DNA from: Thermodesulfobacteriota bacterium
GTDB taxonomy: Bacteria > Desulfobacterota > Anaeroferrophillalia > Anaeroferrophillales > Tharpellaceae
Direction of reading: 5' to 3'
Length of the DNA: 64,000 nt
Assembly: GCA_024763535.1 (NCBI GenBank)
Contig: JANTFH010000006.1
Span: 7,438-71,437 of the forward strand
Both the position numbers and the translations under genes were made by a program. The notes below the pieces were generated by a model. It saw only the letters and a list, made by a program, of their open reading frames with translations, was not told the DNA's origin and searched no databases. How positions within the stretch are numbered: position 1 is the stretch's first letter; each line of letters starts with the position of its first letter. Of the stretch, positions 8,698-64,000 are shown piece by piece.

Positions 8698-10278
8698 TCA
8701 AACTCCCGGCTTGAGCGGCAGTACCACCTTGAAACAGCTCCCTCGACCCGGTTCACTGCTGAAACTAATGTTGCCCTGATGCTGAGCAACAATTATCTTG
8801 GCGGTAAACAGACCGAGCCCGGTCGCTCCATGCTCGGTTTGAACATCTTTGGTCGAGAAGAACGGATCAAAAAGCTGTTCCCGGCACTCAGGTTTAATAC
8901 CGACACCATTATCGGCAACCGAAAAGAAGAGATATCCCTCTTTTTCGATCCCGGTGGTCACCACAATCAGACCGACAAACTCATTACCGCCTGCAGCTTT
9001 ACGCTCCCTGACCGCCTGAGCACCATTGAGCATCAGATTCAACAACACCTGCTGAATCTGACCCTTCTCCATCTTGACCGAGGGCAGGTTTTCAGCAAAA
9101 TCACATTTCAAGACAACCTGATCCCGCTCCAACTCATAGCGGCTGAAGATCAGCGCATCCTCTATCACCTGGTTCAACGAGAGCGGGAACATCTCTTTCC
9201 GTTCAGGATAGGAAAAAATCATCAAGTTACCGGCCAGAAGATTCAAGGCTTCAACCTGATCTTTAAGCTTCATCAAGAGAGCCATATCCTTGGCCCGGTC
9301 TTCTGCGGAGGCCTCAAAACGCATCTGCATAAGTTGCACGACACCATAGATCGCCGCCAGATAATTATTCAGGTCATGGGCCACCCCGGCGGCCATCTGT
9401 CCGACACTGGCCATCTTTTCCGCCCGGATAATCTTATTTTCCATAGTCGCCAGTTTACTGGTATCCTGGATATAGACAACTACCTCACGACTCTTACTCT
9501 CACCTTCATGGAAAACAGGGTAGCAGAAGATATTGACTACAGGTCGCCCGGCTCGCAGATTTTCCGCCCGCATGAGACTCCGAGCCTGACCATCATCCAT
9601 ACATTTCCGCGGCATACATTCGGCACAGGGCGCTTTGCGCTGACGAAAAACCTGATAGCAGTGTTTACCGACAATCTCTTTGGGTATCGTACCGCAATAG
9701 GCGGCCTCGGCCTGATTAACGGTTCTGATGGTAAAGCTGTCATCAATCAGATAGAGTCCGTTTTCAAGTGCGTCCAGGGCCGTCCGGTAGCGCTGCCGAC
9801 TCTCGTTTACTTTGAGGTTCTGTCTCTCCAGAACTTTCGAGAAATTTTCCAGTTGCCGGGCATGGGAGATAAGTTTACGATATTGTCTCTCCAGAAGATC
9901 CGTAGTCTGACTAATTATTTTTTCATAATTACCCATATCCAGTTCGGGCTGGGAGATAATCTCCGGAACATCCTCAAGCGAGTGCTTTTCCACCACGGTG
10001 ACCAGTTTATTGAGGCCGCCCCGAACCGGCCAGACCACCCTGGTCATGAACCAGTGCAGTGTAATCGCTGAAAACATATGAATGGCAACCGAAATCCCGA
10101 CAGCATAGACAGACTCCGGCAAGAGCAGCAGAACCACTACGGCACAGAGATTGACCAGAATCAGAAGCCTGATAAAGAATGTCGCTCTAAGACGTAAAAT
10201 GGAATCAATAAACAACCTGGTTTCTCCCCGATTTCTTGGCATGGTAGAGTTTGCGATCCGCCAGTTCCACCAGTTCAC
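8698..10278 (-). CDS. Membrane-anchored PAS-domain sensor histidine kinase. Start uncertain; the tracked ORF overlaps the upstream GGDEF gene by about 74 nt
   Basis: N-terminal TM segments, a PAS-like Cys-rich region, H-box HDLNNYL, N/G1/G2 ATP-lid motifs (GLGL). No cognate response regulator adjacent. Confidence 0.8.
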   Translation of the reverse strand: MNWWNWRIANSTMPRNRGETRLFIDSILRLRATFFIRLLILVNLCAVVVLLLLPESVYAVGISVAIHMFSAITLHWFMTRVVWPVRGGLNKLVTVVEKHSLEDVPEIISQPELDMGNYEKIISQTTDLLERQYRKLISHARQLENFSKVLERQNLKVNESRQRYRTALDALENGLYLIDDSFTIRTVNQAEAAYCGTIPKEIVGKHCYQVFRQRKAPCAECMPRKCMDDGQARSLMRAENLRAGRPVVNIFCYPVFHEGESKSREVVVYIQDTSKLATMENKIIRAEKMASVGQMAAGVAHDLNNYLAAIYGVVQLMQMRFEASAEDRAKDMALLMKLKDQVEALNLLAGNLMIFSYPERKEMFPLSLNQVIEDALIFSRYELERDQVVLKCDFAENLPSVKMEKGQIQQVLLNLMLNGAQAVRERKAAGGNEFVGLIVVTTGIEKEGYLFFSVADNGVGIKPECREQLFDPFFSTKDVQTEHGATGLGLFTAKIIVAQHQGNISFSSEPGRGSCFKVVLPLKPGV

Positions 10279-10957
10279 TCGGTTCTTTCATGGTCGGATT
10301 GTAGGCCGCGATACCGAGACAGATGGTCAAGGAGCCGATACTCTGCCCTGACAACAGAGGCTGTTTCTCCTGGCCGGGAATCACAGCATCCTCGATCTCC
10401 GTCCGAAAACGCTCCGCCACCCCGATGGTATCCGCCATAGAACTATGGCAGAGCACAGCGAACTCCTCGCCCCCGTAGCGGGCTACGATATCACTATGCC
10501 GGGCATTATCCAGCAGGATTCTGGATACCTCAAGCAGCACCTTATCTCCGGCCGGATGGCCATGGGTGTCATTATAGTGCTTAAAGTTGTCGATATCGAT
10601 CATGATCAACGAGAGTTTGGAATTATAACGCTTGGCCCGCTCATATTCATCCCGCAGCCGCTGCTGGAAATGACGGTGATTATAGAGCCCGGTCAAACCA
10701 TCGGTAATCACCAGCTTATTTAAGGCCTCCTCTTTCTCTCTGAGGTCGGCAATCAGAATCGCCTGCTGAAATGAGGCTTCGCGCAGGATATCGGCGGCAC
10801 TGCGGTCGCCCTGTTCAGCCAGGATACAATCGAGCTGATTTTTTAAAATAATTTTTTCCTGCCGGAGCTTTTGCATCTCTCTCTCCAGTTCAGCCCGGCT
10901 CTTTAGTTCCGTCAATCTACTGTCACCTCCATAAAACACTTTACCTGAACAGGTCAT
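10205..10957 (-). CDS. Diguanylate cyclase (GGDEF domain), short coiled-coil N-terminus
   Basis: 250 aa. RYGGEEFAVL active site. DxLTGLxNRR motif. Confidence 0.85.
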   Translation of the reverse strand: MTCSGKVFYGGDSRLTELKSRAELEREMQKLRQEKIILKNQLDCILAEQGDRSAADILREASFQQAILIADLREKEEALNKLVITDGLTGLYNHRHFQQRLRDEYERAKRYNSKLSLIMIDIDNFKHYNDTHGHPAGDKVLLEVSRILLDNARHSDIVARYGGEEFAVLCHSSMADTIGVAERFRTEIEDAVIPGQEKQPLLSGQSIGSLTICLGIAAYNPTMKEPSELVELADRKLYHAKKSGRNQVVY

Positions 10958-11097
10958 ATCTGTTATAGGCCCGCCTCGGGATCAAGGCTTTGGCGACTTC
11001 TTAATTCCGACAAACTTACGCATAATACATACTGTAAGAACGATAAAAACTCAACCGGTAAAATTAACCGGCGGTTTTTAACGATCAAATAATATCT

Positions 11098-56379: not shown

Positions 56380-56474
56380 TTGTTCAATGTATTACGACAT
56401 AAAAAAGCATTACGTTTTCGAGCGGCCGACAAATAATCAGCGGCCCACAACATGAAGTGTCAAAGGTGAAAAAG

Positions 56475-58565
56475 ATGAGCAAGGAATTAAGCAAGGTACG
56501 TAATATCGGGATCAGCGCCCACATTGACTCGGGCAAGACCACTCTGACTGAAAGAATTCTGTTTTACACCAACAAGATTCACGCGATCCACGATGTTAAA
56601 GGTAAAGACGGCGTCGGAGCCGTTATGGACTCGATGGAGCTCGAAAAAGAGCGCGGCATTACAATCGCTTCCGCGGCGACCTTCTGCGAGTGGAATGATC
56701 ATGCCATCAATATAATCGACACCCCGGGCCACGTCGATTTCACGATTGAAGTCGAACGCTCTCTCCGGGTGCTTGACGGAGCTATCCTGGTTCTCTGTTC
56801 GGTCGGCGGGGTTCAGTCTCAGTCGATTACCGTTGACCAGCAGATGAAACGCTACAAGGTTCCCTGCATAGCTTTTGTCAATAAATGTGACCGCAGCGGT
56901 GCCAATCCGGAAAGGGTTGTCAGCCAGCTTAAGGAGAAACTCGGTCATAATGCTATAGCCATGCAGCTGCCTATCGGCCTCGAAGCGGCTCATGAAGGAG
57001 TGGTTGACCTGGTAACTATGGAAGCTCTCTATTTCGACGGTGAGAATGGAGAAATTATCAGACGCGAAGAGATTCCGGCCGAGCTTCAGGAAAAAGCGGA
57101 AGAGAGACGGGAAGAGCTGATTGAAATGGCCTCCAATTATTGCGATGATCTCGCCGAAGCCTTCCTCGAGGAGCAGGAGATCAGCCCCGATATGATTTTG
57201 CAGGCGATGCGTAAAGGAGTGCTGAAACGGGAGGTCACCCCGGTCTACATTGGTTCAGCCTATAAGAACAAAGGGGTGCAGCCGCTGATGGATGCGGCCA
57301 CCCAGCTGCTGCCCGACCCCTCGGAAGTTACCAACATCGCCCTTGATCTGGATCGGGATGAAGCTGAAGTCGTACTCAGCAGCAGTTCAGAAGATCCCAC
57401 CGTAGCCCTCGCCTTCAAACTTGAAGACGGTCAGTACGGACAGCTCACCTACATCCGGGTCTACCAGGGAGTTCTCGCCAAAGGCGACACCCTGATTAAC
57501 ACCCGCAGCGGGAAAAAGATAAAAATCGGCCGCCTGGTGCAGATGCACTCCAACCAGATGGAGGATATCAATGAGATCTCGGCCGGCTATATCGGTGCCC
57601 TGTTCGGTATCGACTGCGCCTCCGGCGACACCTTTGCCGATCCCAAGCTCAATTACTCGATGACCTCGATGTTCGTTCCCAATCCGGTCATCTCTTTGGC
57701 TCTTGTTCCGAAAGACAACAAGTCTCAAATCAATATGTCCAAGGCCTTGAACCGCTTCTCGAAAGAGGATCCGACCTTCAGGACTTACGTTGATGAAGAG
57801 ACCAACGAAACCATTATTGAGGGCATGGGTGAACTTCACCTTGAGGTCTACGTTGAACGTATGCAGCGTGAATACAATGCTGAAGTAAACACCGGCCAGC
57901 CCCGGGTCGCCTACCGTGAAACCATCACCAAACGGGCCGACTTTAACTACACCCACAAAAAACAGACGGGTGGTTCCGGTCAATACGGCCGCGTCGCTGG
58001 TTATATCGAGCCTTTTGCCGACGGTGAATTTGAGTTCATCAACAAGATTACCGGCGGAGCGATTCCAACCCAGTTTATCTCCTCCTGCGAGAAAGGCTTC
58101 AAAGCCAGTCTGGCCAAAGGGGCGCTTATGGAATTTCCAGTAACCGGCATCCGGGTCGAGATCAACGACGGGGCCTCACATGCCGTCGACTCCTCGGAGA
58201 TGGCCTTCCAGGCGGCCGCCCGCGGCGCTTTCATAGACGCCTACAAGAGAGCAAAACCGGTTATTCATGAACCGATCATGAAGGTTGTCATTGAGACTCC
58301 GACTGAGTTTCAGGGCACCGTCATGGGCACCATCAACCAGCGCCGGGGCACGATCCTCGGCGCCCAGGAAGAGGGCCCTATGTGCGTAGTCGAGTGTCAG
58401 GTACCCCTGGCTGAAATGTTCGGCTATTCCACCGTTCTCCGCTCCAGCACTCAGGGCAAGGCCCAGTTCACCATGGAGTTTGCCAACTACAAGCAGGTAC
58501 CGCAAAGTATTACGGAAGAGTTGCAGAAGAAGAGAGACGAAGAGGCCAAGAAAGGCGCGGCTTAA
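56475..58565 (+). CDS. Elongation factor G paralog of the mitochondrial/spd type (spdEFG1-like)
   Basis: G1 region [24 protein letters not shown] is typical of mtEF-G1/spdEFG1. Full EF-G domain set. Start moved to [13 protein letters not shown]. Confidence 0.85.
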
Positions 58566-58621
58566 TGAGCACACCAATTTCCAGTGCCCGGGTAATCTAC
58601 CTTAGAGAAAGGAGCTTTACT

Positions 58622-59317
58622 ATGTTAAAAAAAGATTTGATGATGCGCAACCCCTTAAGAGCGGTCAGCGATGCAAATGGTTATATCCTGCCGGAAGGTG
58701 GCCTCGGGGCGGTTGTCGCCCGCGCCGGTGTCGGGAAAACAGCCCTTTTAGTACAGCTGTCATTAAACAGTCTGCTCAAAGGTGACAACGCCCTGCATAT
58801 CAGTTTAGGCGATCCAGTTCGCAAGGTCAGCCTCTGGTATCGTGAGGTATTCAATAATATCGGCACCCACTACAAGATTGACAAAATTGATGATCTCTGG
58901 AATGAGCTGCTGCCGCAACGGTTCATCATGACCTTCAATATTGACGGTTTCAGTGTGCCGCGTCTGGATGAACGCCTGACTGAACTTGCCGACCAGGACA
59001 TATTCCATCCTCAGATGATTCTTATCGACGGCCTGCCATTCAATGAGCAGCTCAAACGCACCGACCTGCACGCCTTGAAGGATCTCTCGGAAAAATTCAA
59101 CTCCCACATCTGGTTCACGGTCCGCAGCCATCGTCATGAAGAGCCGGATGCCGAAGGCCTGCCGATCCAGATCAGCGAATATGCCGATCTCCTTGATGTT
59201 GCCATCAAACTTGAGCCCGAAGACAACGAGATCAGGCTTAACGTCTTGAAAGGCAGCGGCTCGATCTCCACCCAGGATCTCTCTCTCGATCCGGCAACCA
59301 TGCTGATCAAAGAATAG
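58622..59317 (+). CDS. Single-domain RecA-superfamily ATPase (KaiC/RadA/GvpD-like, COG0467-type)
   Basis: Walker A ARAGVGKT. Walker B QMILIDGL. Strong AAAGGAG SD before the ATG at 58622. 56 nt after EF-G, with no intervening terminator. Confidence 0.6.
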   Translation: MLKKDLMMRNPLRAVSDANGYILPEGGLGAVVARAGVGKTALLVQLSLNSLLKGDNALHISLGDPVRKVSLWYREVFNNIGTHYKIDKIDDLWNELLPQRFIMTFNIDGFSVPRLDERLTELADQDIFHPQMILIDGLPFNEQLKRTDLHALKDLSEKFNSHIWFTVRSHRHEEPDAEGLPIQISEYADLLDVAIKLEPEDNEIRLNVLKGSGSISTQDLSLDPATMLIKE

Positions 59318-59345
59318 GAACCTACAAGACAAGCATTAGAATTAA

Positions 59346-59382
59346 AAGGCGGGATGAGATTTTCATTATCCCGCCTTTTTTC
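59346..59382 (+). terminator. Rho-independent terminator after the KaiC-like gene (GGCGGGAT...ATCCCGCC followed by T7)
   Basis: Seen directly in the sequence. Confidence 0.65.
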
Positions 59383-59997
59383 AAGCCATCACATTGCAAC
59401 TCTTTTTAGTTTCTCCACTCCAGCAAACATCCATAATAAGTCAAGCCTGCCCCATTCATTGCACTTTTACTGCTCTCCGGCCCAACATCAAGTGGAGTCT
59501 GGCAATCGGGGTTTAAGTGCCAAAGGTCCACTCCCAAGCCAGGCTTCGCAATACTGCTCATGGCCCCCGCTTTGATAATCAGCAATGAATTAAATACTAC
59601 CCAGTGTCACATCTGGTTCTGTATCTGGCAAAACATAAACCGAGCCACAGATACCATCAATCGAAATCTCATCGTCTAAACCATGATCATTATAATAATT
59701 GCTGATAAAATCATTCAAAATATGAGATTGCCATCGGTTTAATTGTTCAAATAAATTCCGTCGTTCCCATTTGATTCACAGTGATTACAGCAAATGCTGT
59801 AACTATCAATGTGATCTCCATATATTCCTGAAAAGAATGAGTTAATGTCTTTTCCATTTCTGTTCCTCAATTTTTTTCAAGCCAACAAAGTAATTGACAC
59901 AATAAATATAGTTATATTACAGTATTTTTAATAAAAACATGGTAACAACTACATCATATCCTGGATTCTCCTGTAATATTTGAGGTTCAAGCCCCCC

Positions 59998-62013
59998 ATG
60001 AACAACCCTTCAACTCTCCCTCTAGCCACTCTTTTTGAAGGAGACCTGCCTAAGTTTCTTAAACAAATAGAACCATTCAAGCATACAAGAGACGATATCT
60101 GTAATTTTCTGACAGCTGCCCACACTTCGCTTTTTCCCGTCCCGACTCAGGAATTTGCGACTGAGCAAGATCCCGACGTTGCCGCAGCCATTATCGGACT
60201 GACTGTCGCCGCCGGATTGAACCGGGGTAATGAGCTAAGTCAGCTCAACCCTTATCATGAGAAGATTAAGGAACTGCTCACCGAAACAAAACTTTCGCCA
60301 ACCGCCAGGGCTTTCCTGCTTTTGCATCAAGCCCAGATTGAACTGATCGTCCACGGCGACCTGACGCAGGCGGAGTCCACCTTCAGAAAGCAGCAGTTGG
60401 CCGCCGAGAAAGCGGCATCTTCATCACTCAAGCTGCTGGGTGCCGCTTTTTATGCTTACTGTCTCACCTGGTCCGGCGATTTAGCTCAGGCCGAAATAAT
60501 TCTCAAGGACAGCGCCCCGTTGCTCGTGAAAGAGGGGCTGCCGCCGCCGGCCATAATGCAATTTCAGATAAGCAACGGCTTGATCAGTGCCCTCTGTGGA
60601 CAGACATCAGAGGGTTTTAAGTCGCTCTCGACATTAGTTGAACACCCCGGTTTTACCAACACTCCACCAACCATACAGTTGTTGACCCTGGGGCACCTGC
60701 TTGATACCAGAATCATTATCGGCAACCTCGACGAAATCGAAAGAAATGCAGAGATGATTCGTGCTCTGGCAATTCCTGACAACAACAATTTCTACCGTAG
60801 CCACCTCCATTTCAACCTGGGCATGGCGGCCCTCAGTCTAGGCCGTCCTCACAAGGCCTTACGCCACAGCGAAGAAGCCAGGTTCCGATCCGGTTTGAGC
60901 CAATCCCCAATTGCAATTCGCAGGAATGCACTATTGCACGGCCTGACCCTGGCCGATCTCGGCCGCCGAAAGGAAGCCCTGAGCCACTTGCAATCCTGGG
61001 TTAAAAACTGGCAGGAATGTAATTTTAATCTGATTGCCGCCCTCGGTTATCTTGAAATCTCCGCCATCCATGCTGCAACTGGCGATTTCGACCAGGCCCG
61101 TCTGGCCTGGAAACAGGCATACGCCCTACTCCCTCCAGGCGAAAAAATGCCATACCAATATCGACCAACGACCTTTTACGGAGAGCTTGAAGAGAAGATT
61201 TTTCCTGAAAAACGTAACTACATCAAGGAGACTGACTATTATCCGGTAAAGATCACCACTCTGGGTGAATTTTTTATAGAGATTAACCAAAAAAAGGTCT
61301 CGATTAAGGAGTGGCGTGGCCGAAAAAGCCGGAATCTGCTTTTTGCTCTGATTGCCCACGGCGGTCGCAAGGTCCCCAGAGAACAACTGGCAACTATGCT
61401 CTGGCAGGATAGTGACGGGGATCTGGCCGATAACAGTCTCAATGTTACCCTCTCGCGACTGCGCCGGATCGGTTGCGACAACGGCCACAAGCCATTTCCC
61501 TGGCTGGTGGCAAAAAACCGCATGATTTGGCTGGATAAAGATCTTTGCCGGGTGGATGCCCTGGATTTTAAGCAAGAAATCACCAAAGTCCTTAAACAGG
61601 CAAGCGGGACTCCGGCCCTGACCAGAGTTCTTGACAGTTACAGCGGCAGCTTCCTGCCGACATTCAAAGGATTGATCTGGCTCGATAAATTTCGCGATGA
61701 ATTGGCGCAACTCTACGTCCGGGGCGTGTTAGTCCGGATCGAAGAACTGCTCCATGAGAACCAGGAACGTACCGCCCTGGCTTTGCTGGCAAAGGCCAGC
61801 AGCCACGCCCCCCTCTATGAAAAAATCTGGGGCCGCCGCATGCAGATTCATATCGACAACGGAGAAGCCGCCCAGGCCCTGAGTGTCTATCGCCAGGCTG
61901 AAACCAACCTGGCCGCCAATCTTGACATCGAACCCGGCCCCCGGCTCCAGGAACTGGCCCGAATAGCCGGTAACCGGCCATCCCGCCAGGTGTGGAGTAA
62001 AGAGAAAAGATAA
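59998..62013 (+). CDS. SARP/AfsR-family-like transcriptional regulator with permuted architecture: N-terminal TPR/helical-repeat region, C-terminal OmpR-type wHTH and BTAD, no NTPase domain
   Basis: C-terminal ITTLGEFFIEINQKKVSI..RKSRNLLFALIAHGGRKVPREQLATMLWQD..LNVTLSRLRRI matches the SARP wHTH pattern, followed by BTAD-like helices. The N-terminal 400 aa are helical repeats with no Walker A. The alternative TTG start at 59980 is not excluded. Confidence 0.65.
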   Translation: MNNPSTLPLATLFEGDLPKFLKQIEPFKHTRDDICNFLTAAHTSLFPVPTQEFATEQDPDVAAAIIGLTVAAGLNRGNELSQLNPYHEKIKELLTETKLSPTARAFLLLHQAQIELIVHGDLTQAESTFRKQQLAAEKAASSSLKLLGAAFYAYCLTWSGDLAQAEIILKDSAPLLVKEGLPPPAIMQFQISNGLISALCGQTSEGFKSLSTLVEHPGFTNTPPTIQLLTLGHLLDTRIIIGNLDEIERNAEMIRALAIPDNNNFYRSHLHFNLGMAALSLGRPHKALRHSEEARFRSGLSQSPIAIRRNALLHGLTLADLGRRKEALSHLQSWVKNWQECNFNLIAALGYLEISAIHAATGDFDQARLAWKQAYALLPPGEKMPYQYRPTTFYGELEEKIFPEKRNYIKETDYYPVKITTLGEFFIEINQKKVSIKEWRGRKSRNLLFALIAHGGRKVPREQLATMLWQDSDGDLADNSLNVTLSRLRRIGCDNGHKPFPWLVAKNRMIWLDKDLCRVDALDFKQEITKVLKQASGTPALTRVLDSYSGSFLPTFKGLIWLDKFRDELAQLYVRGVLVRIEELLHENQERTALALLAKASSHAPLYEKIWGRRMQIHIDNGEAAQALSVYRQAETNLAANLDIEPGPRLQELARIAGNRPSRQVWSKEKR

Positions 62014-62115: not shown

Positions 62116-63342
62116 CTAACGGTTCCTACCCCAGCCCAAATCTGACCAGGATCTTATTCTCCAGGAACCGGCGTTCAAACCATCCAATTGCGTCAGGGTG
62201 GCCGGCCCTTCAATGACAATGCCTTCTACGGTTACGGTGCCCGCCGAAATCGTCAAACTCCCGTTGATCGTCGAACTGTACCCGGTATTATCACTGTAAT
62301 CCGCATTCCAACCACCTCTTAAAAAGATGTCAACATCCTCATCCAAAGTCAATTCTTCAAGGAAAAAGCCCTTTTCACCGACCCTGATTTCACTGCCGTT
62401 TGCAGACGCGGAGTAAGCCCCAAAAACCGAGCTGAAACAGGGTTTAAGACCATTACAATAGCTGTCATCACAAACATATAGAATACCGGAATCAACACCG
62501 GTTCCGGTTAGAGCGACAAGCTGCGGGGTTTCAGGATCATTGCTGGGAATAGAGAGGGTGGCGGTTTTTACGCCAAGTGATCCGGGAGTAAAAACCACCT
62601 CAACCGTCCGGCTGTTACCAGGCTCAAGCATCTCCCCGGAGCAATTATCATTTGTCAGACTGAAACATGTCGCATCAGAGCCAGTGATCACCAAAGGACC
62701 AATTACAAGATTAACATCTCCGCTATTAGTGACTTGCAAAGTTTTGCTAGAGCCGCTTCCGTCGAACTGAACCTCGGCAAAATCCAGAGATTCGTTATCA
62801 ACATCAAGAACAGGTGCTGGAGGGGTCTCTGTTTTTGTCGTGGGATCAGCGTCACGCTGAAACTCTTCAAGATCACTCAAGCCATCATTATCGCTATCGC
62901 CACTGCCGTCAGAAGCTGTCAAACTTCCGAAATAAGCCATTTCCCAAACATCAAGCATGCCATCATCATCACTGTCTTCAGTCGCCAGGTGAAGCCTGAT
63001 GATCTCCCCCATGGGTCCAACCGTCAAGGTCGCAGCGGCCGTAATTTCACCGTCGACAAAGATTTCGACCGTATCTCCCGGGCGGGCGGTACCGGGAATC
63101 TGGGGATCAAGCGAGTCAATCGGCAAGCGCAAAATATAATACGGTGCCAGCCTGGAATTCGTGGCGACACTAAAAGCGGCGATCTCAACCCCGTTGACTT
63201 TCGCGGTCACGCTGGCACTGTTCTCCCGGGCCACACCGTAAATAATATTATCCGGCTCCGGCAGCCTTGCATGAGCACTGAAAGCAAAAAAACAAATTGC
63301 AACAATAATGCTGCCGACCAAACCCACTTTAAGTATGTTCAT
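62116..63342 (-). CDS. Secreted/cell-surface protein with acidic Ca-binding (thrombospondin-type-3-like) repeats and a choice-of-anchor-D-like beta domain
   Basis: Signal peptide MNILKVGLVGSIIVAICFFAFSAHA, start moved to 63342. DSDDDGMLD...DSDNDGLSD repeats. FDGSGSSKTLQVTNSGDVNLVI motif. Confidence 0.55.
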   Translation of the reverse strand: MNILKVGLVGSIIVAICFFAFSAHARLPEPDNIIYGVARENSASVTAKVNGVEIAAFSVATNSRLAPYYILRLPIDSLDPQIPGTARPGDTVEIFVDGEITAAATLTVGPMGEIIRLHLATEDSDDDGMLDVWEMAYFGSLTASDGSGDSDNDGLSDLEEFQRDADPTTKTETPPAPVLDVDNESLDFAEVQFDGSGSSKTLQVTNSGDVNLVIGPLVITGSDATCFSLTNDNCSGEMLEPGNSRTVEVVFTPGSLGVKTATLSIPSNDPETPQLVALTGTGVDSGILYVCDDSYCNGLKPCFSSVFGAYSASANGSEIRVGEKGFFLEELTLDEDVDIFLRGGWNADYSDNTGYSSTINGSLTISAGTVTVEGIVIEGPATLTQLDGLNAGSWRIRSWSDLGWGRNR

Positions 63343-63441
63343 ACCAGCCCCCAAGCCCTTTTCACAGTTGCTTGCATCTATCAATACTCCCATTCATAAA
63401 TTACAGGTGCCCTTAGTTTAAGAGCCAGATCCCCCGCGCCG

Positions 63442-64000
63442 CTATCGAGATTTACCCGGTAATGACGGAGGGAAATTTTTTTCCGGTTGTGCAGCAGTTT
63501 TTTTCGCAGACAGCATTTCCAGGCGAATATTTTCCAGCATAACCTGATCTATCTTGACTTCAGCCGCCTGCCGCAATGACTCGACATACTTCGCCCGCTG
63601 TTCTTTGAGCTCCTGTTGCCGGATCTTTCTTGCGATACCCCGACTGACCTTAGCCAGATCAGTCTTAAATGCTGCCCTTTTGCCAATAAGTTTGATGATA
63701 TGAAAACCTTTTGCGGTTTCAATCACCTGATCCCCGACCCTGCCGTTATCCAGAGCAAAGGCAGCCTTGACCAACTCAGGCGCTATCTGACCGGGTTGAC
63801 CCCGGCGATCAAAAAAACCGGTATCGCCACGGCCGTGAGCGGGATGTGAATCCGAATATTTATTGATCAACCGGGTGAAGGCAAAACGATCTTTCGCAGC
63901 AAGCACTTCGGCCAGTACAGCTTCAGCCTTCCGCCGCTGTTTTGCCCGGTTGTTGCCGAGCGGTGCGGCAATAAATATTTCGGCCAGGCGAACCTGCTCC
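63442..64000 (-). CDS. PpiC-type (parvulin) peptidyl-prolyl isomerase, PpiD/SurA-like, 3' part; the gene starts beyond the window end
   Basis: Rotamase-domain pattern (GDQVIETAKGFHIIKL). The open frame continues past 64000. Confidence 0.55.
   Translation of the reverse strand, partial: EQVRLAEIFIAAPLGNNRAKQRRKAEAVLAEVLAAKDRFAFTRLINKYSDSHPAHGRGDTGFFDRRGQPGQIAPELVKAAFALDNGRVGDQVIETAKGFHIIKLIGKRAAFKTDLAKVSRGIARKIRQQELKEQRAKYVESLRQAAEVKIDQVMLENIRLEMLSAKKTAAQPEKNFPPSLPGKSR

Follow-up and report, generated by a model that had tools for sequence, protein, structure and literature searches.

A regulator with a TPR-like solenoid ahead of a C-terminal SARP module, and without an NTPase domain, in a genome of the Desulfobacterota

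The stretch of DNA analysed here, hereafter the window, comprises 64,000 nucleotides (nt) of contig JANTFH010000006.1 (positions 7,438 to 71,437; assembly GCA_024763535.1) from a Thermodesulfobacteriota bacterium. Close to its 3' end lies a gene for a 671-residue protein in which helical repeats are followed by a winged helix-turn-helix (wHTH) domain and a BTAD domain, the combination found in SARP regulators. The gene appears monocistronic, a terminator separating it from the upstream operon, and a secreted-protein gene converges on it from the other side (Table 1). Its start was taken as the ATG at 59998, with an alternative TTG at 59980; a protein identical to it is held in the public collection (P0001), and the full-length homologs agree in both length and start.

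Table 1. Features of the regulator gene and its surroundings (coordinates of the window; residue numbers of the regulator)
Feature	Position	Strand	Basis or remark
Intrinsic terminator of the upstream EF-G-like/P-loop operon	59344..59386	+	12-nt perfect inverted repeat AAAAGGCGGGAT/ATCCCGCCTTTT (59344-59379), then T-run
Sigma-70-like promoter candidate TTGACA-18-TACAGT	59894..59923	+	consensus scan, 10/12 matches; 75 nt ahead of ATG
TPR-wHTH-BTAD regulator gene, complete	59998..62013	+	list of open reading frames; 671 codons + stop
Leader, residues 1-58	59998..60171	+	short helices; AlphaFold2 pLDDT 47-83; family-variable, poorly conserved columns in alignment
TPR/SUPR-like solenoid, residues 59-376	60172..61125	+	eight helical hairpins, AlphaFold2 pLDDT >90
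Linker, residues 377-416	61126..61245	+	conserved PxGE(K)MPxLYRP motif (alignment); one helix 391-401 (AlphaFold2)
OmpR-type wHTH, residues 417-519	61246..61554	+	Pfam, AlphaFold2, EmbR/AfsR alignments
Recognition helix, residues 474-489, GDLADNSLNVTLSRLR	61417..61464	+	alignment to AfsR
BTAD, residues 520-658	61555..61971	+	Pfam; all-helical in AlphaFold2; EmbR/AfsR structural matches
Convergent gene, secreted Ig-like-domain protein	62116..63393	-	Pfam Cep192_D4/HYDIN-like Ig/DUF1573
Heptamer-pair candidate ACTAAGG-gcacc-TGTAATT	63399..63417	-	read by eye, ahead of convergent gene; weak (see text)

The first-pass annotation had proposed a domain-permuted SARP-like regulator whose last 230 or so residues form the wHTH-BTAD module. 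Pfam, phmmer, AlphaFold2 and Foldseek all support such a module at the C-terminus, its extent being somewhat greater than proposed, at about 240 residues (417-658). The Pfam matches to Trans_reg_C (residues 442-491, 31.8 bits against a cut-off of 26.2) and BTAD (residues 540-654, 58.7 bits against 22.1) are both C-terminal and above their cut-offs, while NCBIfam returned only matches to AfsR and to OmpR-family response regulators, all far below threshold. In a phmmer search against the Protein Data Bank (PDB), residues 443-655 align to EmbR 34-251 and AfsR 48-260. An AlphaFold2 model built from the family alignment, with a mean predicted local distance difference test score (pLDDT) of 86.8 and a predicted template modelling score (pTM) of 0.61, likewise places the repeats first and the wHTH and BTAD domains last. 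Its wHTH domain has a beta-sheet/three-helix/beta-hairpin topology, with strands at 417-435, helices at 442-453, 461-468 and 474-489 and wing strands at 503-519. The best Foldseek matches in the PDB, which extend across some 250 columns at a sequence identity of about 23%, are EmbR (2ff4, E=2e-7) and the SARP module of AfsR (8k60/8hvr). AfsR contacts DNA through R92 and T88 (PMC10936776); R487 of the present protein aligns with the base-contacting R92 in the phmmer alignment (offset +395). Across the family, residues S486, R487, L488 and R489 are invariant or almost so, with R487 invariant.

Ahead of the module, about 400 residues of TPR-like repeats had been expected. Helical repeats are indeed present, although the array itself covers only about 320 residues, the remainder of the N-terminal 400 or so being accounted for by a 58-residue leader of low model confidence and a 40-residue linker. 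Residues 59-376 form 16 paired helices (eight hairpins) in the model; the Pfam matches to TPR_2, TPR_12 and TPR_14 span residues 246-379, and a match to TPR_MalT is sub-threshold (21.9 versus 45 bits). In Foldseek comparisons the repeat array resembles MalT domain III (1hz4, TMt 0.68) and NprR (5dbk, TMt 0.65). The solenoid carries invariant, family-specific residues (P217, F219, P223, P260, N263, F265, R297, S303, W334 and W338), and the invariant Pro, Asn, His, Trp and Arg positions of the family solenoid fall outside the TPR consensus. Residues 59-376 thus probably serve as a sensor or partner-binding domain. The statement that no Walker A motif occurs anywhere in the protein was confirmed: regular-expression searches of the 671 residues for Walker A (in strict and in loose form), GK[ST] and Walker B motifs found none, and Pfam gave no match to AAA or NB-ARC families. 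The PADLOC defence models yielded nothing beyond a generic TPR match confined to residues 251-317 (24.4 bits), and a role in a defence system of the antiphage STAND/TPR kind was rejected on this basis.

The same architecture is found well beyond this genome. Ten full-length homologs (P0002-P0011, 33-59% identity, 622-727 residues) are alignable end to end and share the domain order. In a wider scan for relatives, restricted to one genome per species, 328 loci were found and 80 kept. About 34 of the 80, from species-level genomes, encode proteins of some 640-790 residues with the same architecture and no P-loop, and about 30 encode proteins of 1050-1130 residues, mostly with a Walker A motif near residue 40-60. 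At every one of the 80 loci the SARP module ends 1-49 residues ahead of the stop codon. The term 'permuted' is therefore justified relative to described SARPs, whereas it does not single out the present protein. Hosts of the group of about 34 without a P-loop include Desulfobulbaceae and other Desulfobacterota, Nitrospirota, Sedimenticolaceae, Thiodiazotropha, Gallionellaceae, Azonexus and Hydrogenophilales. A profile of the putative sensor, made from the N-terminal 410 residues alone and searched against 1.84 billion representatives, recovered 110 clusters (50% identity) at E<=1e-30, almost all of them 600-750 residues in length with the domain at about 30-445; beyond these clusters only generic TPR proteins and two proteins of about 995 residues were obtained. 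The family is thus fairly widespread in sulfur-cycling environmental bacteria, with at least 110 clusters. Some of its members are already labelled 'DNA-binding SARP family transcriptional activator' or 'MalT/SARP' by JGI.

The first-pass annotation was also right that the module is N-terminal in described SARPs, which holds for all their classes (small, medium, large and SARP-LAL), according to a 2024 review (PMC10972967). SARPs have further been considered exclusive to actinomycetes, with proteobacterial hits doubted (Krause et al. 2020), or else to occur mainly there. Literature searches on SARP modules at the C-terminus and on SARPs outside actinomycetes turned up nothing relevant apart from statements of actinomycete specificity, and no account of the present family. 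In the non-actinobacterial phyla fetched here, however, SARP modules generally serve as C-terminal output domains: apart from the present family, the module occurs behind STAND NTPase and TPR domains, behind REC, behind PilZ and PAS, behind an NTPase-less MalT-like TPR and behind unannotated N-termini. The REC fusion was seen at L061 (7644-8879), and the fusion to PilZ and PAS at L038 (7233-8732), where cyclic di-GMP is a possible input. Shorter versions of only 470-500 residues were noted in Malikia/Burkholderiales (L035, 5103-6602; L036, 7773-9272; L040, 978-2384); they match the present protein to residue ~521, and so stop right behind the winged helix, without BTAD, and the one at L036 has no Pfam hit. 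Tandem regulator paralogs were observed at L029 (1-1614 and 1667-3754), L030 (258-2336 and 2376-4475) and L034 (3875-7150 and 7461-9833).

The family profile aligns to proteins of the AAA_16...BTAD type with an hhalign probability of 99.9, family columns 162-668 being collinear with their C-terminal half. The two proteins of about 995 residues recovered by the sensor profile (P0162 and P0167) consist of AAA_16, a homologous sensor and then a C-terminal BTAD, and the BLASTP alignment to another NTPase-bearing relative, P0012, starts at linker residue 382. At L034 (Desulfovibrionales) an AAA_16-bearing paralog of 1092 residues is encoded directly upstream of an NTPase-less family member of 791 residues; it matches residues 158-658 of the window's protein in one collinear BLASTP segment (E=6e-19) that includes the family-specific sensor motifs. 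Judging from these alignments, the regulator looks like the sensor and output part of MalT-like STAND proteins of NTPase-TPR-SARP order without their NTPase, and the family like an NTPase-less branch of that lineage.

Since such relatives with homologous sensor and output occur, and since an unusually long spacer of 680 nt devoid of open reading frames precedes the gene, it might be argued that the reading frame is merely a decayed or mis-assembled STAND remnant that lacks its 5' part, that is, a pseudogene or an annotation artefact. This is very improbable. No match to the NTPase parts of eight relatives was obtained by tblastn upstream of the regulator or elsewhere in the window, the same architecture of about 700 residues with a conserved N-terminus is shared by 110 clusters or more and by about 34 species, and the AlphaFold2 model is confident along the whole protein. 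In addition, the upstream operon is closed by a terminator and a promoter-like site lies ahead of the regulator, and in-frame stop codons upstream of the family genes, checked at the 80 loci, exclude truncated calls of longer frames. A truncated pseudogene was rejected given the lack of NTPase remnants together with the conserved architecture.

A split STAND system, with the missing NTPase supplied in trans by the neighbouring open reading frame at 58565-59317, is scarcely credible. This frame, of 250 codons, does carry a GVGKT Walker A motif and sits just upstream; however, its sole Pfam match is a weak one to AAA_25 (RecA/KaiC-like), with no STAND NOD, its ATG overlaps the stop codon of an EF-G-like GTPase gene (702 residues; the pair spans 56457-59317 on the plus strand), and the strong terminator that closes this pair lies between it and the regulator. 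Moreover, homologs of the P-loop frame are absent beside every other family member. The split-NTPase explanation was accordingly discarded, the P-loop protein being RecA/KaiC-like, part of another, terminated operon and not conserved near the relatives.

As the recognition helix is almost invariant in the family (...LSRLRR...), the flanks of the family genes were searched for direct repeats. At 5-6 loci the heptamer GGTTACA was found repeated at 10-12 nt on the downstream side of the regulator, compared with a maximum of 1 in shuffled sequences. The array consists of two or three copies of TGT(A/T)ACC with a period of 11-12 nt, followed after 10 nt by a TAnAnT-like hexamer, a ribosome-binding site and an ATG. 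Arrays on the same strand as the regulator lie 0-150 nt past its stop codon in 16 of 32 loci, against about 0.4 expected, and in 12 of these 16 the best match to a -10 element is offset by exactly 10 nt; more arrays with the 10-nt offset occur ahead of convergent or more distant genes. A relaxed form of the heptamer pair occurs 35 times in the family loci, against a mean of about 10.5 in shuffles, and the distribution of its offsets peaks at 10. In the subgroup to which the window's protein belongs, the arrays read TGTAAGG-gttt-TGTAAGC (P0002), TGTAACC-tttt-TGTAAGA (P0003), TGTAATA-tttt-TGTAAGT (P0004) and TGTAATC-tttt-TGTAAGG (P0005), each with a -10-like hexamer 10 nt after it. If the unit is taken as the heptamer plus 4 nt, that is 11 nt, the proximal unit spans about -29 to -19 and the second one -40 to -30, and an ACCTTT-like sequence is read at the -35 position, so that these promoters should depend on an activator.

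This layout corresponds closely to what is known of SARP targets, in which direct repeats of 11 or 22 bp overlap the -35 region with the 3' repeat near the -10 element; the afs box of AfsR extends from -40 to -19 and has 11-nt repeats (PMC10936776). At the level of sequence, therefore, a SARP-type cis-element with SARP-type geometry lies beside family genes in the relatives. The variants of the recognition helix also follow those of the heptamer, LNVT pairing with TGTAAGN sites and LK(V/T)(A/T) with TGT(A/T)ACC sites, a co-variation that fits cognate recognition.

Taken together, we consider it likely that the protein is a one-component activator with a C-terminal SARP module as output and an N-terminal TPR/SUPR-like solenoid as input, operating without an NTPase. 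By analogy with the arrays of the family, two or three protomers would bind head-to-tail on direct heptamers of 11-nt period, the repeat being TGTAA(G/T)N in the window's subgroup and TGT(A/T)ACC in others. With the proximal unit occupying about -29 to -19 and its neighbour covering the -35 position, the SARP module would replace the -35 element and recruit RNA polymerase, as has been shown structurally for AfsR, where activation proceeds by way of contacts to sigma region 4, to the beta flap and to the alpha subunit's C-terminal domain (PMC10936776). Before it binds a ligand or partner, the solenoid most likely holds the SARP module in an inactive state, with no nucleotide switch involved. 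Control by the solenoid is suggested by three points: STAND sensors autoinhibit, the non-SARP domains of AfsR inhibit its SARP module, and the solenoid of the present family has invariant residues outside the TPR consensus. For this particular copy, DNA binding, activation, autoinhibition and response to a signal are all inferred.

Several observations weigh against this interpretation. Inhibition by the solenoid is drawn purely by analogy, and the model has the pTM of 0.61 given above. The co-variation of helix and heptamer is confounded by phylogeny and rests on one clade. No heptamer array was detected in the 64-kb window, either with a position weight matrix (PWM) derived from the arrays or with relaxed patterns (TGTWACC-N4-TGTWACC, allowing two mismatches at most, and TGTAA-N6-TGTAA, allowing one). 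When the neighbours of 34 loci were clustered, no neighbouring gene was conserved across the family, only occasional tandem paralogs being found, and hence nothing in the genomic context points to the signal. Finally, sites that overlap the promoter could in principle serve repression as well. As the arrays cover -40 to -19 of the core promoter, the protein might occupy them as a repressor or autoregulatory brake that acts by promoter occlusion. We regard this as improbable: the array promoters have no -35 element and keep a fixed 10 nt to the -10 hexamer, which is the hallmark of SARP-activated promoters, the BTAD domain has been kept and conserved, and described SARPs with such geometry are activators (PMC10972967, PMC10936776).

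The genes behind the arrays are heterogeneous, encoding secreted proteins or a small protein of about 65 residues. Apart from a 791-residue fibre-like protein with a Pfam match to Peptidase_S74, their identities were read from sequence without a domain scan; they comprise two proteins with PEP-CTERM-like C-termini, one similar to the formylglycine-generating-enzyme type, one resembling papain-like peptidases, a protein resembling c-type cytochromes (three loci) and one repeat lipoprotein. The PEP-CTERM-like sorting signals end the targets at L009 (~10236-10958; VPVPGALWLFGSGLAAFAFQRK) and L023 (~9787-10506; TPEPSTAVLLFAAIAGLFASHRR), which hints at a link to exosortase-dependent surface proteins. 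An identical array, TGTAACCGGTTTGAAACC-N10-TATACA, was observed on the minus strand at L021 (~10534), L026 (~12808) and L027 (~8509). It lies about 0.7-0.8 kb downstream of the regulator on the opposite strand at L021 and L027, and about 3.2 kb from it at L026; at L021 and L026 the gene behind it encodes a conserved 222-residue signal-peptide protein with a CxxCH haem-binding motif.

At five loci the target is a conserved protein of 63-68 residues with the pattern ...YIxxIYR...LVGTIED...G.K.AF...EEL, encoded behind a heptamer promoter at L003 (~2463), L006 (~3647), L007 (~3649), L032 (~10048) and L042 (~9933), on the plus strand in each case and just behind the regulator or its array. The protein matches no Pfam family and lacks a signal peptide. 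Its small gene follows directly 3' of the regulator under a box of its own, which recalls afsR-afsS, the likeness being one of gene order only. Such genes bear on the nature of the input, since the solenoid might not sense a small molecule at all and might instead be a platform for a peptide or protein, as in the RRNPP regulators, the partner possibly being the ~65-residue protein or the small secreted proteins encoded just downstream in relatives. The structural similarity of the solenoid to NprR, the common binding of peptides by TPR arrays, the directly regulated downstream gene (the 63-68-residue protein at five loci, a small secreted protein at others) and a gene order like that of regulator-peptide cassettes and of afsR-afsS would all agree with this. 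Nevertheless, a motif search found no gene of the small-protein family in the window, the ~65-residue proteins lack signal peptides and the targets of the arrays are heterogeneous, and we hold a peptide or protein platform to be unlikely.

As for the target of the window's own activator candidate, the closest relative with available context (P0002, 59% identity) has the same arrangement of a regulator and a convergent secreted-protein gene, with an array ahead of the latter. By analogy, our best guess is that the convergent operon containing the gene at 62116-63393 is the target here. Three relaxed matches at 33.2-33.7 kb were rejected as sites for want of the -10 geometry, and the pair ACTAAGG-N5-TGTAATT ahead of the convergent gene is weak and unsupported, as it fails both the PWM and the relaxed scans and its -10 geometry is poor. 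The convergent operon's promoter may lie beyond position 64000. The convergent protein contains Asp-rich repeats of the calcium-binding type and a signal-peptide-like stretch beginning at M18, in view of which the true start of its gene is probably at 63342. Upstream of it on the same strand lies a gene for a PPIC-type peptidyl-prolyl isomerase (63442-64000), which runs past the window's end and of which the listed frame of 154 residues represents an internal start; this gene may be co-transcribed with the secreted-protein gene located 48 nt downstream. On the other side of the regulator, no Rfam match and no convincing open reading frame were found in the 680-nt spacer, about 600 nt of which lie behind the terminator. 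Its portion of about 500 nt at 59387-59893 contains several short inverted repeats, and short minus-strand frames there might be fragments of a decayed gene. The promoter candidate that follows this portion is weak evidence, as such sites are no more numerous in the region than in shuffled sequences.

Among known systems, the large SARPs of Streptomyces such as AfsR (SARP-NOD-TPR) and EmbR of M. tuberculosis possess the same effector module, the wHTH being followed directly by BTAD, and share the SRLR(R/K) motif of the recognition helix, including the base-contacting Arg. AfsR also has a TPR array, and the family promoters share the 11-nt direct-repeat period and the register of the afs box. 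However, the module is N-terminal in AfsR and EmbR and C-terminal here, neither a NOD/NTPase nor an FHA domain is present in the window's protein, and the hosts are actinomycetes in the former case and Proteobacteria, Desulfobacterota and Nitrospirota in the latter. While AfsR regulates antibiotic clusters, the present family would control genes for secreted or small proteins, and the neighbouring genes are housekeeping or secreted-protein genes rather than those of an actinomycete secondary-metabolite setting. MalT-type STAND regulators follow the same N-to-C logic, with a sensor ahead of the DNA-binding output; their domain III resembles the solenoid, and true homologs of the family with an N-terminal AAA_16 NTPase exist. 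In contrast to MalT, the lack of an NTPase here means no ATP-driven oligomerisation switch, and the output is of the SARP type instead of a LuxR-type HTH.

The RRNPP regulators (NprR, PlcR, Rgg and AimR) are also one-component, NTPase-less proteins, their DNA-binding domain being governed by a TPR solenoid. They have an N-terminal XRE-type HTH and a C-terminal TPR array, occur in Firmicutes and their phages, and are accompanied by an adjacent gene for a secreted pro-peptide. The present protein differs in its C-terminal OmpR-type wHTH/SARP module, and no peptide gene or other small gene adjoins the regulator in the window. In REC-wHTH-BTAD response regulators, which we take to be COG3947, the SARP module is likewise a C-terminal output; the input there and in other architectures of this kind is a receiver or PAS domain, compared with a TPR solenoid of about 320 residues here. 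The protein therefore has the fold that defines SARPs, differs from them in domain position and taxonomy, and lacks the NTPase that defines STAND proteins. We class it as a protein that would function in the manner of a SARP but with a novel domain architecture, outside the SARP classes described so far.

It is conceivable, although we think it doubtful, that these proteins of about 700 residues make up an unrecognised, nucleotide-independent class of SARPs outside actinomycetes, whose TPR sensor reads a peptide, a small protein or a metabolite and switches on adjacent genes for secreted or PEP-CTERM-like proteins or for small AfsS-like ones. If so, they would be a Gram-negative counterpart of cassettes of the RRNPP or AfsR-AfsS type, and the conserved heptamer promoter would allow their entire regulon to be predicted from sequence. 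What is gained adds to existing knowledge without changing its concepts, since neither the domains nor the mechanism of activation is new and some members already carry SARP-family labels in databases. The family nevertheless places the SARP module as a C-terminal output in several Gram-negative phyla, and suggests that the module can work behind a TPR sensor without an NTPase and that the geometry of the afs box has been kept across phyla. The rule of heptamer-N4-heptamer-N10-(-10 hexamer) may allow targets to be predicted in uncultured sulfur-cycling bacteria, and the family would offer a natural 'minimal' system for the gating of a SARP module by TPR repeats, free of the complication that an ATP switch brings to studies of AfsR and MalT.

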